From positions 1-44,028 of the forward strand of contig CAZPAP010000002.1 of NCBI GenBank assembly GCA_964584725.1: DNA of 44,028 bases. Direction: 5' to 3'. Shown here in pieces: positions 10,082 through 14,112 of this stretch. Position 1 is the stretch's first letter, and each line of letters starts with the position of its first letter. The notes under the pieces were generated by a model, which saw only the letters and a program-made list of their open reading frames with translations, had not been told where the DNA came from and did no database searches. The DNA is from an uncultured Gammaproteobacteria bacterium (lineage in GTDB: Bacteria > Patescibacteriota > Patescibacteriia > 2-12-FULL-60-25). The translations under genes were made by a program, and so were the position numbers.

Positions 10082-10804
10082 ATGTCTTTTGTCCAAAAAA
10101 AAATCGGCCCAGAACAGGGATTTGGCGCTGATCTTAGGCAGTTGCGGGAATTGCGCGGTTGGACGCGCGAGGCCTTGGAGCGTGCGACAGGCATCCATAA
10201 AAATACGATTTGTTTGCTAGAGGAAGAAAGATTAGATGAATTGAATGATCCGGCTTATGCTGAGCGGCATGTCCGTTCTTTGGTCAGCGCCTTGGAGGGC
10301 AGAGTCGGATTTTTTTTGGAAAAATATCGTTTAGCACTCGAAAGATTGGGCAAAAAAACCGGCCAAGACAATTTTGTTTTTGCCAGAAGGATCAAAAAGT
10401 CCGATTTGTTCGTGCCTTCCAAATATCTTATTTTAGTCGCGATTATTCTTGTTGTAGGCGTTCTTGGCTGGTATGTCGCGCATCAGGCAGGGCATCTTAC
10501 GGCCTCGCCTCAGCTTGAGATCCTGGAGCCGGCTGACCACGCTGTGATCAACAATTCCTTATTGCGCGTAAGAGGCAAAACAGACCCGACAGCTTCGATC
10601 TCCATTAATGGCCAATCAGCTGTGGTGGAAACGGACGGATCTTTTGATATATCTTTTGATGTGCCCAGGGGCACGACTCGATTGGATGTAGCTGCTAAGC
10701 GCCGCTATGGCGGAGAAGTAGAAATAGTCAGATACGTTACATATAATCAGTCAGCTACCTCAACCAGTGCTTTGCCAGAGCAATCAGCGACAACTACAAA
10801 ATAA
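10082..10804 (+). CDS. XRE-type HTH membrane protein (RodZ-like architecture)
   Basis: HTH LRELRGWTREALERATGIHKNTICLLEE, one TM segment (YLILVAIILVVGVLGWYV), beta-rich C-terminal domain. Confidence 0.7.
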   Translation: MSFVQKKIGPEQGFGADLRQLRELRGWTREALERATGIHKNTICLLEEERLDELNDPAYAERHVRSLVSALEGRVGFFLEKYRLALERLGKKTGQDNFVFARRIKKSDLFVPSKYLILVAIILVVGVLGWYVAHQAGHLTASPQLEILEPADHAVINNSLLRVRGKTDPTASISINGQSAVVETDGSFDISFDVPRGTTRLDVAAKRRYGGEVEIVRYVTYNQSATSTSALPEQSATTTK

Positions 10805-10836
10805 AAAAAAGCTGCATTCGCGAGTGCGTTTGCAGC
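10803..10836 (-). terminator. intrinsic terminator of the 407-aa orphan gene
   Basis: GCTGCA..CGC-GAGT-GCG..TGCAGC hairpin. An 8-nt A-run on the + strand gives a U-run on the - strand transcript. Confidence 0.6.
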
Positions 10837-10863
10837 CAAAGGCCCAGTCATTGCCACCCCGTG

Positions 10864-12087
10864 TTATTTAAGGGTGGACAGTCCGGCTAGGCAAGGTACA
10901 TCGAGATCAGGAATCCTGCTGTCAGCCGGGTCGTTGTGGCAAGCGAGAGTCTGATCTTCTTGAGGGTCGTTTTCGTCGCTTGGCCCATCGTCTTCGGCTT
11001 CAGCTTCAGGCACCTGTCTGGTTGCAGGCGCGGAACAGCTCTCATCCTCGGCATTTTCGTCTGCTCGGATGCGCGTCAGGTGCAGAGCGTAGTAGCTCTC
11101 ATTCAGCCGCCGCCTACAACGCTTGCTTCTCTCTGAGCTTGGTTCTTGGGGGAGATAAAGCCCGTAGAGATGCGCCATGTCCATCAGCGTGTGTGCCATG
11201 AACGTGTTGTAGGTAATGGTGATCAGACGGGCGACTTCCATGCCGGGTTGTACTGAGTCATCGGAATCCGCTGACGGATGAGAGCCCTGAACCAGTTGGC
11301 CGCCGAGAAAGACCAAGACCGACCTTTGCCCGCCTTTTCGAGGGGCAGCCAGGAGAATGAAACAGCCGGTTGGGATGGGCATGCCTTGTCCATTCCTATA
11401 GCCTGTGAGCCCCACTTCGGTATGGCGTCCTTCCCAGCGCGCGTACCGATTCGCGAAGCGTTCCTCGACCTCAGACGACGGCGTCATGTCCCAAAACACT
11501 CGCTTGAACTTGTAGAACGGTACGTGGTATGAGCGATTCGGGCTGATGCCTGGCACCCTGCCTGATCGATTGCGGAACAGCCTGCACGAGGTCGGATTGA
11601 CGAAGACGTCAATCGTATTGGCCTCGATTTCGTCTCTGATGTTGGGGTGCAAGCCTTTCCAAAAATCCGGATAGGTCTCAGGGAATTCGTCGCAAGGGAC
11701 CATGTACTCCCGCATGGTAGAGCCGTGCAGGATGGTTTCCTCAAGGCGAGGGATCCTTGCCCTGACCTTGTCGCCAATCAGCGGATCAGCGACATCGTTC
11801 TCGTCGTCGGACTTTTCGACCAGGGAGAACTCGCACGGCTCGTGGAACCGGAGACAGCCATGGTCGTCGCGTTCGAGAGCGCCGCTCAGGGTGATGTACG
11901 CCAGATCGTGCCTCAAGAAATCTCCACACCATTTCGTGATCAGGTGGAGAGTGTGATTCCACGGCGCGATGGTCGGCTGGTCGGGGACAGGGTTTTCTGT
12001 GTCAGTGTAAACCGATTCGGCCAACACTTCGTCCTTGATTCCAAGTTCGCGCGCTTTCTTAGCGGCAGTCTCTTGTCCGTTTCTCAT
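10864..12087 (-). CDS. orphan protein, 407 aa, acidic C-terminal tail
   Basis: GGAGG lies 5 nt upstream of the ATG. Long uninterrupted ORF. I see no P-loop, recombinase, RT or nuclease motif. Confidence 0.7.
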   Translation of the reverse strand: MRNGQETAAKKARELGIKDEVLAESVYTDTENPVPDQPTIAPWNHTLHLITKWCGDFLRHDLAYITLSGALERDDHGCLRFHEPCEFSLVEKSDDENDVADPLIGDKVRARIPRLEETILHGSTMREYMVPCDEFPETYPDFWKGLHPNIRDEIEANTIDVFVNPTSCRLFRNRSGRVPGISPNRSYHVPFYKFKRVFWDMTPSSEVEERFANRYARWEGRHTEVGLTGYRNGQGMPIPTGCFILLAAPRKGGQRSVLVFLGGQLVQGSHPSADSDDSVQPGMEVARLITITYNTFMAHTLMDMAHLYGLYLPQEPSSERSKRCRRRLNESYYALHLTRIRADENAEDESCSAPATRQVPEAEAEDDGPSDENDPQEDQTLACHNDPADSRIPDLDVPCLAGLSTLK

Positions 12088-12353
12088 GGATTCCTCCGGG
12101 GGTTCGTGTAAATTTTTAAGGAGCTTTACGCTCCTCCGTGTTTTGCCGCCTCTACTGGCAATGGGGGACGAAAAAACACGGGGGAACCTGGCAGAATGAA
12201 GATGGAGGCGATGCTCGCTTTAGGCAAGAGCTTCACACGAGCTCGCACGCGGTTTTTGAGCCCAGCCTGAGCCGGAGTCTTATGACCACATACTTGGCCG
12301 AAGCCAAATTTTCCCCTCCATTTGCATTCTGTCAGATTTTGAATGAATGGGTA

Positions 12354-12382
12354 AGCTTAGCAAAGATTTTGATTATTGTCAA
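12354..12382 (-). promoter_or_regulatory. sigma70-type promoter P3 (drives the 407-aa orphan through a roughly 250-nt leader)
   Basis: On the - strand: TTGACA, 17 nt, TAAGCT. Confidence 0.55.
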
Positions 12383-12407
12383 GGCCTTGAAGGCCTGATC
12401 AACAAAC

Positions 12408-12428
12408 AAAAAAGACCCTAATTGGGCC
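12408..12428 (-). terminator. weak intrinsic terminator after the 58-aa ORF
   Basis: On the - strand: GGCCC-AATTA-GGGTC (one G.U pair) followed by TTTTTT. Confidence 0.3.
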
Positions 12429-12446
12429 ATTTTTACTCAAATCAGC

Positions 12447-12623
12447 TTACTCCTCTTTGAAAGGATGTTTACTTTTGCGGTTATATTTAACTTTTGCCTT
12501 ATGGATACGCGAGACCGGAGGCTGAGTTTTGCGTATCTTTTTTTCAATATCCCGCATTGAAAGCACAATGGTATTGCTTGCAGGGGTCTTGATATGTGTC
12601 GGTTGAGCTTTTTTCTTAGCCAT
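12447..12623 (-). CDS. small basic protein, 58 aa (below the track cut-off)
   Basis: ATG...TAA read by eye: MAKKKAQPTHIKTPASNTIVLSMRDIEKKIRKTQPPVSRIHKAKVKYNRKSKHPFKEE. Preceded by an extended -10 TGgTAGAAT (12641-12633) with no SD. Confidence 0.35.
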   Translation of the reverse strand: MAKKKAQPTHIKTPASNTIVLSMRDIEKKIRKTQPPVSRIHKAKVKYNRKSKHPFKEE

Positions 12624-12658
12624 ATCTTTCTAATTCTACCACTTTTTTAGGCAAACAA

Positions 12659-12944: not shown

Positions 12945-13038
12945 GCTTCCTCCTCCGCCTGCAACATAGCCCGTGTTCGGGTGCTGCAAGGTTTTTCTCC
13001 TCAATGCGCGCTTCGAAGGCTTTTCAAAATAACGATAT

Positions 13039-13067
13039 ACTATACCAGAAATTAGGGTTTTTGTCAA
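13039..13067 (-). promoter_or_regulatory. sigma70-type promoter P2
   Basis: On the - strand: ACTCTTGACAAAA..CTAATTT.., that is TTGACA, 17 nt, TATAGT. Near-duplicate of P1. Confidence 0.6.
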
Positions 13068-13086
13068 GAGTTTATGACTCGTTTTC

Positions 13087-13158
13087 TTGGCTAAGATTAG
13101 CGCAAATTTTATTGGCTTGATTGAGCCAAATTACATATTTTTAGCCAAAATAAGCCAA
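13087..13158. repeat. TTGGCT / AGCCAA word array (iteron- or operator-like)
   Basis: TTGGCT at 13087 and 13112. AGCCAA at 13124, 13143 and 13153. 13112-13129 forms TTGGCT-6 nt-AGCCAA. Confidence 0.6.
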
Positions 13159-13162
13159 AACG

Positions 13163-13198
13163 AAAAACCGCCGGCTGGAAGTGTGTTCCAGTCGGCGG
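13163..13198 (-). terminator. intrinsic terminator of the 234-aa orphan gene
   Basis: 13-nt-arm GC-rich hairpin with 2 mismatched positions (11 paired): CCGCCGACTGGAA / TTCCAGCCGGCGG on the - strand, followed by TTTTT. Confidence 0.7.
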
Positions 13199-13228
13199 GT
13201 CAAATAGCTCCTCCTTGAATGTTCGGGT

Positions 13229-13933
13229 TTAGGCTGCGACAGGCGGGACAAGCCGCAGATGGTTGCGGCGGCTGCGCTTCTTCGCAGGGGTTTGCGCCTG
13301 CTGCTTCTGCGCCTGCTGCTGCAGGGCTGCCAGCTCAGCCAAGTGATCCTGCTCGTCCATGAGGTACTTGGCCAGGTCCAGGAATCGGATCCGCGTCTCT
13401 AGGCTTGCATCAACCCAGAGCTTTTCCAGCTCCTGCTTGGAGTGTCCAAGGTCGTCCATGAGGCAGCGCATTCCGCGCTTGCGCATCTGGCCGCTGAGCC
13501 CCTGCCACCAAGTATTGAGCTCGCGGGCTCGTTCAACCAGGGTTGCATCCGGGGCTGCCAGGGCTGCTTGGTGCAGTTTGGCCAATGTTTCCTGGTGTTT
13601 CCAGTAGAGCTGGACAGCCTGGTTGTGGATTACACTGTCAGCCCACCACAACTTGTGCCTCAGGTGGTGCATGAAGTGTACCAGTACCGGCTTGGGCACG
13701 TGGTTGGTGTTGTAGTCCAGGATTTGATCGAATCCAGGCACAGGATCAGGATGCATCTCGAACATCCTGACGCAGGCCTCGATCGTTTCCATTGCCCCTT
13801 GTCCCAGGAAGCTTCGCCTGTGGAGCAGGTTTAGCGCAGTACGGCACAGGTCTGACTCCTCTGCCAGGTTAGGCAAGTCTTTCTCGGCCTTTGTCCAGAA
13901 TGAGGTCGTTCTGAGATTGATTCTGTTTTCCAC
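13229..13933 (-). CDS. orphan protein, 234 aa, predicted helical, Gln/basic tail
   Basis: GTG start with GGAGG 7 nt upstream. No family recognised. Confidence 0.7.
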   Translation of the reverse strand: MENRINLRTTSFWTKAEKDLPNLAEESDLCRTALNLLHRRSFLGQGAMETIEACVRMFEMHPDPVPGFDQILDYNTNHVPKPVLVHFMHHLRHKLWWADSVIHNQAVQLYWKHQETLAKLHQAALAAPDATLVERARELNTWWQGLSGQMRKRGMRCLMDDLGHSKQELEKLWVDASLETRIRFLDLAKYLMDEQDHLAELAALQQQAQKQQAQTPAKKRSRRNHLRLVPPVAA

Positions 13934-14013
13934 GGTATTTCCTCCAGGTGAATGGCCAAATCAATAGAAATGGCCGGGTTGTGTACGAGCGAAATTGCGA
14001 ATTGAATCAAGTA

Positions 14014-14042
14014 ATTTAGCATAAATTAGCGATTTTGTCAAG
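14014..14042 (-). promoter_or_regulatory. sigma70-type promoter P1
   Basis: On the - strand: TTGACA, 17 nt, TAAATT. Shares ACTCTTGACAAAA and CTAATTT with P2. Confidence 0.6.
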
Positions 14043-14112
14043 AGTGGCAGGCATTTGATTTGACAATGGCCTAGGACTTGGGCCTTCAGCGGCTAGGGCT
14101 GTGGTTAAAAAC

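Follow-up and report, generated by a model that had tools for sequence, protein, structure and literature searches.

We analyzed a compact gene cassette located immediately upstream of the RNA polymerase genes rpoB and rpoC on contig CAZPAP010000002.1, the whole of which (44 kb; 44,028 nucleotides, nt) served as the window of this study. The RpoB protein encoded in the window matches its counterpart from a Candidatus Uhrbacteria metagenome-assembled genome at 78% identity and the one from a Patescibacteria single-cell genome at 66%, and judging from these matches the source organism is therefore an Uhrbacteria-like Patescibacterium. Between the gene for a helix-turn-helix (HTH) protein and rpoB lie three minus-strand transcription units, each with its own promoter of the form TTGACA-17-extended -10 and its own terminator. 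A first-pass annotation, made from the letters of the DNA, had proposed that this interval is an undescribed RNA-protein module. Comparison with the homologous locus of a sister lineage (contig Ga0172379_10002651, hereafter L081) showed that the cassette is native and lineage-restricted, that it carries three real protein genes, and that it is not a recent mobile insertion. As delimited by alignment of the two lineages, its conserved core consists of an array of short DNA words, the promoter P2, a structured RNA segment of about 385 nt (RNA1) and the 58-codon open reading frame (ORF) ORF58, and this core is flanked by two hyperdivergent genes, ORF234 and ORF407. The features of the cassette, in the order of its transcription, and of its flanks are as follows.

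14013..14041, minus strand: promoter P1, TTGACA-17-TAAATT with TG before the -10 hexamer; scan score 10/12; serves ORF234; faces away from the rpoB promoter; identical in L081
13934..14006, minus strand: 5' untranslated region (UTR) of ORF234, with the Shine-Dalgarno (SD) sequence GGAGGAAATACC before a GTG start
13229..13933, minus strand: ORF234, 234 amino acids (aa); positive codon score; last 10 residues HLRLVPPVAA (13232-13261) conserved
13160..13198, minus strand: intrinsic terminator of ORF234, a GC-rich hairpin of 12 pairs with a U-run behind it; folding energy -20.6 kcal/mol; unchanged in L081
13087..13158, no strand assigned: TTGGCT/AGCCAA array, 5 words in 72 bp with spacings of 25, 12, 19 and 10 bp
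13039..13067, minus strand: promoter P2, TTGACA-17-TATAGT with TG before the -10 hexamer; scan score 11/12; both hexamers kept in L081, spacer varies
12848..13016, minus strand: RNA1 domain 1, predicted four-way junction with a 15-pair closing helix; fold z-score -5.8; hairpin UCCGGU-UUCG-ACUGGA at 12923-12937
12659..12843, minus strand: RNA1 domain 2, predicted four-way junction with a 21-pair closing helix; fold z-score -7.5; hairpin UCCGGU-GCAA-ACUGGA at 12737-12751
12633..12641, minus strand: possible internal extended -10 promoter TGGTAGAAT, read from the sequence, ending 9 nt before the ATG of ORF58
12447..12623, minus strand: ORF58, 58 aa, very basic (isoelectric point, pI, about 10.7)
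12405..12428, minus strand: ORF58 terminator, folds as a hairpin
12354..12382, minus strand: promoter P3, TTGACA-17-TAAGCT with TG before the -10 hexamer; serves ORF407; repeat family D1 together with P1 and P2
12088..12347, minus strand: RNA2, the structured leader of ORF407; hairpin UCCGGC-UCAG-GCUGGG at 12262-12276
10864..12087, minus strand: ORF407, 407 aa; positive codon score; acidic C-terminal tail
10803..10837, minus strand: ORF407 terminator, immediately past the HTH stop codon
6712-7794, plus strand: recA, left flank
7837-10080, plus strand: ftsK, left flank
10082-10804, plus strand: HTH_25 protein, 240 aa, left flank; gene convergent with ORF407
14444-17908, plus strand: rpoB, right flank
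17921-21907, plus strand: rpoC, right flank

With a codon-usage model for which 18 confident genes from the same window served as training set, positive in-frame scores within the interval were obtained only for the minus-strand ORFs of 407, 58 and 234 aa (+0.12, +0.09 and +0.08, respectively), while the two ORFs of 111 and 60 codons that overlap the RNA segment scored negative. The first-pass annotation had described an interval running on the minus strand only, set between plus-strand core operons (recA-ftsK-HTH and rpoB-rpoC), and both statements were borne out, the operons by ORF calls and family search. Its small basic ORF likewise proved to be a real and conserved gene.

The sister contig was found by a metagenome scan with the neighboring HTH protein. 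A near-identical 3.1-kb contig from another sample, L082, differs from L081 at 2 of 3148 bases, and L083 is L081 reversed; statements on conservation therefore compare two independent lineages, the window on one side and L081/L082 on the other. The gene order of L081 is that of the window: ftsK, HTH, then minus-strand ORFs of 380, 58 and 235 aa, then rpoB. Because the same cassette occupies the same locus in the sister lineage, it has been inherited within the lineage rather than freshly inserted. The two nearest species-level relatives (rpoB 78% and 66% identical) lack it upstream of rpoB and carry unrelated genes there, different in each, and blastn and tblastn searches of the cassette against 80 rpoB-anchored loci gave no match. 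Neither of these two relatives has rplKAJL before rpoB, so the earlier argument that the missing rplKAJL marks a synteny break in the window fails; the region upstream of rpoB is generally fluid in this clade. By eye, from translated ORFs, small membrane-protein genes precede rpoB in one of these relatives (L001, 1-2720), and a Mur-ligase-like gene and a CYTH-like-looking gene of about 190 aa precede it in the other (L002, 7775-9985). Divergence between the window and L081, expressed as DNA identity or as protein identity with nonsynonymous (dN) and synonymous (dS) substitutions per site, was distributed along the locus as follows.

ftsK and HTH genes: DNA identity 87.5%
P1 region through rpoB into rpoC (13928-20852): DNA identity 95.6%
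Non-coding middle of the cassette: DNA identity 84%
Two large ORFs: not alignable by blastn
ORF407 versus 380 aa: protein identity 33-34% (E 3e-49); dN 0.71; dS saturated (NG estimate 1.86)
ORF234 versus 235 aa: protein identity 30% across the whole alignment and 37% when limited to the last 98 residues; dN 0.81; dS saturated (NG estimate 1.42)
ORF58: 55 of 58 residues identical; dN 0.022; dS 0.49 (dN/dS 0.045)
ftsK (C-terminal part): protein identity 97%; dN 0.020; dS 0.68
HTH: protein identity 90%; dN 0.049; dS 0.68
rpoB: protein identity 99.6%; dN 0.002; dS 0.15
rpoC (N-terminal part): protein identity 99%; dN 0.005; dS 0.29

The dS values are thus very uneven along 8859-20852, and the cassette sits at the transition, which suggests either a recombination boundary or a strong codon-bias constraint on rpoBC.

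The hyperdivergence is confined to the two large coding sequences; their promoters, UTRs and terminators stay conserved. Upstream of ORF234, the identity is about 97% as far as the start codon, collapses just after it and recovers about 45 nt before the stop codon. In ORF407, the divergence spans the distance from the start codon to the terminator hairpin, and conservation is back exactly at the hairpin. Both frames have remained open despite 66-70% amino-acid divergence. The dN values of the two genes (0.71 and 0.81) equal or exceed the roughly neutral divergence of every neighbor (dS 0.15-0.68). At reliably aligned identical residues, the fourfold sites were unchanged in 16 of 37 cases in the orphans and in 207 of 304 cases in the left flank and ORF58 (p = 0.005), so that relaxed constraint alone is insufficient to explain the divergence. 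On this comparison, either the orphan alleles are older than their flanks or their coding sequences mutate faster. In both alleles of both genes, the codon use is host-like, with a GC content at third codon positions (GC3) of 0.66-0.75, like that of rpoB, which argues against a recent foreign origin. The last ten codons of ORF234 carry 5 synonymous and 0 nonsynonymous changes, and both alleles end in ...LVPPVAA. We take this non-polar ...VAA end to resemble ssrA-type ClpXP tags; clpP lies within the window.

Homology searches placed neither large protein in a family. Full HMMER searching of 1.8 billion representatives (of about 15 billion proteins) returned only the L081/L082 orthologue for ORF407, and a word-seeded search of 5.8 billion clusters returned nothing beyond the query itself for either ORF407 or ORF234; the only homologue of ORF234 is the 235-aa ORF of L081. 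Searches of Pfam, NCBIfam, PHROGs and PADLOC with both alleles gave nothing below E 0.03, and sequence and profile searches of the PDB gave nothing. Exact-sequence look-ups of ORF407 and of the HTH protein encoded in the window likewise met no recorded protein. These results agree with the first-pass description of two orphans without a recognizable integrase, transposase, reverse transcriptase (RT), P-loop or nuclease motif, and the co-occurrence that it had proposed to look for was found in the only other lineage carrying either protein. The acidic composition of the ORF407 tail was confirmed as well; the tail is probably disordered.

A cassette running opposite to both flanks, with a word array and strong private promoters that resemble replicon control regions, could be imagined as the decayed remnant of a plasmid, satellite or prophage lodged upstream of rpoB. 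We regard this as very improbable. The cassette contains no integrase, transposase, replication (Rep) or partition gene and no tRNA, it stands at the same site in the sister lineage, and its codon use and GC3 are those of the host. The weak 15-nt inverted repeat near both cassette ends (I6), which would suit such an element, is one of 26 similar chance-level pairs and was judged to be chance, so that the terminal repeats are at chance level only. Phage and plasmid collections searched with the cassette gave no match, nor did scans of viral contigs with both protein alignments. An 18-mer from a conserved hairpin did match two viral contigs, once in a terminator and once in a coding region, and was rejected as chance. 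The satellite, plasmid, defense or addiction origin suggested in the first-pass annotation accordingly finds no support, there being no mobile genes and no PADLOC, PHROG, phage, plasmid or viral match alongside host-like codons. What stands of its proposal is the discrete orphan unit with private promoters, a word array and structured RNA.

The joint hyperdivergence of the two proteins, with dN at or above the dS of the neighbors, is also what might be seen if the cassette were a conflict module of the toxin-antitoxin, addiction or anti-phage defense kind, with ORF407 and ORF234 as a cognate, toxin/immunity-like pair and with the RNA and ORF58 as accessories. The conserved ...VAA tail of ORF234 would be compatible with proteolytic instability (reading it as a degron draws on general knowledge), and clpP is at hand in the window. 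Such a module nevertheless seems unlikely, as neither allele of either protein has a PADLOC, Pfam, NCBIfam or PHROG match, PADLOC 2.0 gave zero matches for five proteins at E up to 1, and the cassette has no defense-island or mobile context. A type II toxin-antitoxin system was rejected because no domain match was found in either allele and the two genes are neither adjacent nor co-transcribed, lying 1.1 kb apart with separate promoters and terminators. A type III (ToxIN-like) system, which has a tandem-repeat RNA, was rejected because TRF reported three weak two-copy arrays, none of them in a transcript upstream of a toxin-like gene; Pfam and PADLOC contained no ToxN or AbiE match.

The three promoters and the word array are conserved between the two lineages. 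P1 and P2 are near-consensus by scan, and P2 is, as first noted, a near-duplicate of P1 (82% alike over 34 nt). P3, with its weaker -10 hexamer, falls below the threshold of the promoter scanner in the window, and its L081 counterpart, TTGACA-17-TAAGAT, passes with 10/12. The private promoters of the first-pass annotation are upheld, and the three terminators of the cassette all fold as hairpins in the manner described. The resemblance of the P2 spacer to the ORF58 terminator (I14) is not kept in L081 and was put down to chance. The array holds five TTGGCT/AGCCAA words in 72 bp against about 0.09 expected at the density of the word in the window (57 occurrences in 44 kb), and includes the palindrome TTGGCT-N6-AGCCAA. 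L081 has the same five words at the same spacings, with substitutions confined to positions between the words. Lying upstream of P2, the array is probably a DNA site to which a protein binds, such as an operator. Outside it, words of the TTGGCT type are not statistically enriched. The 5' UTR of ORF234 has two GGCCATT words 17 nt apart (TTGGCC in L081), and early in the ORF407 leader (12295-12310, minus strand) there is a TTGGC-loop-GCCAA hairpin whose loop changes from UUCG to UAU in L081.

Downstream of P2, the 412-nt stretch reaching to ORF58 folds at -162 kcal/mol with a z-score of -7.96, the background of 220 window stretches of 200 nt having a mean z of -0.2 and a standard deviation of 1.24; RNA1 of L081 gives z = -9.05. 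The first-pass annotation had singled out a helix-closed element of about 185 nt here. That element is real, its 21-nt arms being 90% complementary, but it is only the second of two domains in a segment of about 385 nt. The two domains share a parallel architecture and are similar to each other beyond shuffled sequences (z 2.8, 4/500), and an origin by tandem duplication is therefore plausible. RNA1 differs between the window and L081 by 25 substitutions in 396 aligned nt (93.7% identity), compared with a fourfold-site identity of 68% for ftsK, HTH and ORF58 (p = 5e-19) and of 87% for rpoB and rpoC (p = 4e-4). Over the whole stretch that begins with the ORF234 terminator, takes in the array and P2 and closes with RNA1, the lineages differ at only about 6-7% of positions. 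The substitutions look like those of a structured RNA: the UUCG tetraloop of domain 1 (12928-12931) is GCAA in L081, the 5' arm of the domain 2 closing helix has three one-sided changes, all of them wobble-compatible, and elsewhere in domain 2 a U-A pair became C-G by a double change. L081 also has 54 nt inserted precisely at the 4-nt linker that joins the domains, and the inserted segment folds as a hairpin of its own. This insertion (3878-3931, minus strand, between window positions 12848 and 12847) is made up of about nine short GTAC-containing repeats (CGTACC..CGTACCC..GTACTACGTACC...), and may be a repeat expansion or a miniature insertion.

Small ORFs overlap RNA1. The 70-codon ORF doubted in the first-pass annotation is indeed not coding: where the window has its ATG, L081 has ATT, and of the codon changes 12 are nonsynonymous and 4 synonymous. 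A 60-codon ORF (12647-12829, minus strand) with a GTG start and without an SD sequence extends exactly across domain 2 and is uninterrupted in either strain. Of its 8 substitutions, 5 are synonymous third-position changes, 3 are conservative first-position changes and 0 affect second positions (nominal p about 0.03). Among the six frames, the one it occupies scores best for codon use, and JGI called a 63-aa gene in this region of L082. The P2 unit could accordingly be an ordinary mRNA in which domain 1 is the 5' UTR, followed by the 60-codon ORF protein and ORF58, with no independent RNA function. We consider this quite unlikely. The codon score of the 60-codon ORF is still negative (-0.05), its GTG start is buried in the 21-pair helix, its product has no family match, and the z-score of domain 2 is extreme for coding sequence in the window; domain 1, which resembles domain 2, is clearly non-coding.

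Most remote of all the explanations is that RNA1 is a housekeeping RNA (RNase P, 6S, tmRNA or the signal recognition particle, SRP, RNA) too divergent for Rfam. Its length and strong promoter would fit RNase P RNA, its adjacency to rpoBC would suit 6S RNA, and the contig holds no other such RNA. However, a search with a 431-nt query at lax filters and E up to 10 gave no match to these families, the two independently closed domains fit neither the P1-closed fold of RNase P nor the rod of 6S RNA, and ARAGORN found no tmRNA, nor any tRNA, in the window. More generally, Rfam gave no match for the whole window at the gathering score, and searches with the cassette and with both RNA segments alone at E up to 10 gave chance miRNA-type matches only. 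No gathering threshold of Rfam 15 was reached for RNase P, 6S, tmRNA, SRP, HEARO/omega RNA, OLE, ROOL, GOLLD, raiA or riboswitches. A literature search on structured RNAs in Patescibacteria gave nothing specific.

The leader of ORF407 is the second structured RNA of the cassette. The heavily base-paired leader of about 250 nt described at first pass was confirmed (263 nt, z = -4.98). It has changed at 21% of positions relative to L081, yet 4 base pairs, each in a helix of its own, have undergone compensatory double changes (window pairs 12325/12198, 12286/12252, 12241/12214 and 12179/12138) together with three wobble changes, and six slid-partner controls gave zero double changes. This pattern shows compensation maintaining the predicted fold of the leader. 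The first-pass annotation had asked for covariation in the RNA segments, and the leader helices do show compensatory changes.

RNA1 and the leader are linked by a shared motif. The pattern TCCGG-N6-CTGG occurs 4 times in the window against 0.23 expected, and 3 of these occurrences are on the minus strand of the cassette: domain 1 (12923-12937) and domain 2 (12737-12751) of RNA1 have a copy apiece, and the third is in the ORF407 leader (12262-12276). L081 has exactly three matches, all at homologous sites. Each cassette copy is predicted to fold into a hairpin of 6 pairs that includes one and the same internal G-U pair and leaves its tetraloop free; the loop is closed by a U-A pair in the RNA1 copies and by a C-G pair in the leader copy. 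In addition, 7 of the 20 minus-strand copies of GGAGG lie within the 948 nt of the two RNAs (2% of the window), one of the seven being an SD sequence.

The third element of the core, ORF58, had one other cluster in the word-seeded search of 5.8 billion clusters, namely its sister-strain copy, and it had no Pfam match at E up to 1 and no family or PDB match. The TGGTAGAAT element is kept in L081, while 5 of the positions between it and the ATG of ORF58 have changed, and ORF58 lacks an SD sequence in both strains. We therefore infer that TGGTAGAAT may act as an internal promoter of the extended -10 type, from which ORF58 would be transcribed as a nearly leaderless mRNA.

Collectively, these observations are consistent with a native RNA-protein regulatory module that controls a fast-evolving protein pair, a reading to which we assign a probability of about 0.35. 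In such a module, a single RNA-binding factor, for which ORF58 is the best candidate although another factor might serve, would recognize the UCCGG-N6-CUGG hairpin both in the two RNA1 domains and in the ORF407 leader. Abundant RNA1 would act as a scaffold or decoy and set the level of free factor acting on the leader, and the leader would thereby gate translation of ORF407 by a titration logic like that of Csr/Rsm. The TTGGCT array would be the DNA site controlling P2. The two hypervariable proteins would be the output, probably a cognate pair under diversifying or balancing selection, and the conserved ...PPVAA tail of ORF234 resembles a ClpXP degradation tag.

Several points weigh against this regulatory module. 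In the shuffle control for the RNA1 consensus structure, 245 of 500 shuffles reached the observed value, a comparison of two sequences and hence uninformative. In the window-only fold of RNA1, 8 of 14 changed pairs are still canonical, and two independent lineages make for thin covariation statistics. The conservation of RNA1 could stem in part from recombination history, given the uneven divergence of the locus (dS 0.15 in rpoB versus 0.68 in ftsK), and RNA1 could simply be a long 5' UTR. Domain 2 might also be coding through the 60-codon ORF, making RNA1 a dual-function RNA, or the ORF's pattern might be chance. The GGAGG motifs lie mostly inside predicted helices, unlike the GGA loops of Csr sponges. 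AlphaFold2 modeling of ORF407 reached a pLDDT of 35 alone and 33 with its one homologue, an unusable model that offered no structural clue. RNA binding by ORF58 and any dependence of one unit on another are assumptions of the model.

The chief competitor is that the three units are unlinked neighbors, with RNA1 a stand-alone, lineage-specific small or medium RNA or just the long 5' UTR of ORF58, with the large ORFs ordinary fast-evolving hypothetical genes such as abound in candidate-phyla genomes, and with no functional significance in their adjacency. We hold it to be about equally likely. Each unit has its own promoter and terminator, no protein of the cassette could be assigned to a family, and co-occurrence is weak evidence when it comes from two lineages. 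Pulling the other way are the hairpin motif that occurs twice in RNA1 and again in the ORF407 leader against 0.23 expected per window, the extended promoter pattern common to P1, P2 and P3, and the preservation of order and spacing in the sister lineage despite change-saturated ORFs.

A bolder form of the regulatory module is a tentative proposal that we think rather unlikely: an undescribed ribonucleoprotein (RNP) system native to a Patescibacteria lineage, in which RNA1 and leaderless ORF58 would gate translation of ORF407 through the shared hairpin while this protein and ORF234, with its degradation-tag-like tail, are kept hypervariable. It would be a new kind of RNA-regulated self/non-self or host-interaction module in episymbiotic bacteria, organisms believed to live in close contact with host cells. 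The hypervariability in such an RNP system would arise either from allele exchange across the conserved regulatory flanks or from targeted hypermutation restricted to coding sequence.

If RNA1 is a functional non-coding RNA, it would represent a new class of large structured RNA within the candidate phyla radiation, one for which a candidate protein partner is obvious. To our knowledge, almost no regulatory RNAs have been described from this radiation. In the cassette, two native and abundant-looking orphan genes have coding sequences at or beyond neutral divergence, their regulatory parts have hardly changed, and the RNA beside them exceeds neutral sites about five-fold in conservation, a pattern that, on the alignments, points to diversifying or balancing selection or to a mutational process restricted to coding sequence. 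Known from two uncultivated lineages, the cassette is valuable today as a well-defined target rather than as an explained system.

Several further features of the window were recorded. The rpoB gene has its own near-consensus promoter (TTGACA-17-GATAAT, 14113-14141, plus strand), which points away from P1. Within the rpoB 5' UTR of about 300 nt lies a hairpin that looks like a terminator and has a U-run behind it (about 14255-14302; weak Rfam match of the His_leader type, E 3.1); promoter hexamers and leader are kept in L081. This region (14113-14443, plus strand) may be a transcription attenuator for rpoBC. At the far end of the contig, one ORF of at least 2754 codons (35767-44028, plus strand) with an N-terminal hydrophobic signal-like segment runs past the contig end; it probably encodes a giant surface protein and accounts for the apparent absence of ORFs from the final 8 kb. 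Second in strength among the folding outliers of the window is the stretch at 2401-2600 (z -6.4 on the plus strand and -4.9 on the minus strand); it covers the end of a minus-strand ORF without a Pfam match (2467-2964) and the short gap to the next minus-strand frame (2104-2430), and includes the hairpin CCATCTTTTAGATGG.

Finally, we compared the cassette with known systems. Since the features that would place it within one of them were absent, we rate it as outside the known kinds. For retrons and diversity-generating retroelements (DGRs), no RT domain was found in the cassette ORFs, and no long imperfect direct repeat could serve as a template/variable repeat (TR/VR) pair. OMEGA (IscB/IsrB/TnpB) and IS110 elements were rejected because ORF407, ORF234 and their L081 counterparts ORF380 and ORF235 had no Pfam or NCBIfam match at E up to 1 and HEARO gave no match, and a Csr/Rsm system proper because ORF58 had no match to the CsrA family (PF02599) in Pfam at E up to 1. 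Likenesses in layout are nevertheless apparent. As in polymorphic toxin/immunity and type II toxin-antitoxin loci, two nearby proteins diversify together within conserved flanks, one of them with a possible proteolysis tag; in the cassette, however, the genes are 1.1 kb and two transcription units apart, carry no toxin, immunity or antitoxin domain, and have no secretion or delivery genes near them. The ORF407 unit recalls OMEGA elements (IscB/IsrB preceded by an omega RNA) and IS110 elements (a recombinase whose 5' UTR includes the bridge RNA) in having a structured RNA of about 250 nt directly 5' of a gene for about 400 aa on the same strand, but its protein, hypervariable in contrast to those nucleases and recombinases, lacks a RuvC, HNH, PLMP or DEDD/Tnp domain in either allele, and the cassette lacks element ends. 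RNA1 is comparable to the RNA of the OLE RNP and to ROOL, GOLLD and raiA in being several hundred nt long, multi-domain, highly conserved in sequence, narrow in its lineage distribution and exceptionally stable in its predicted fold, and it differs from them in its tandem two-domain build, its other host phylum, its restriction to two lineages and its lack of an Rfam match. With the Csr/Rsm system (CsrA and the sponges CsrB/RsmZ, described here from general knowledge), the differences are that the repeated unit of the cassette is a whole hairpin stem with a variable loop rather than a GGA loop and that the RNA has only two copies of it. The two are alike in that a small protein gene stands beside a strongly expressed structured RNA, and in that this RNA, rich in SD-like GGAGG motifs, repeats a short motif that is also found in the leader of a target mRNA near the SD sequence.

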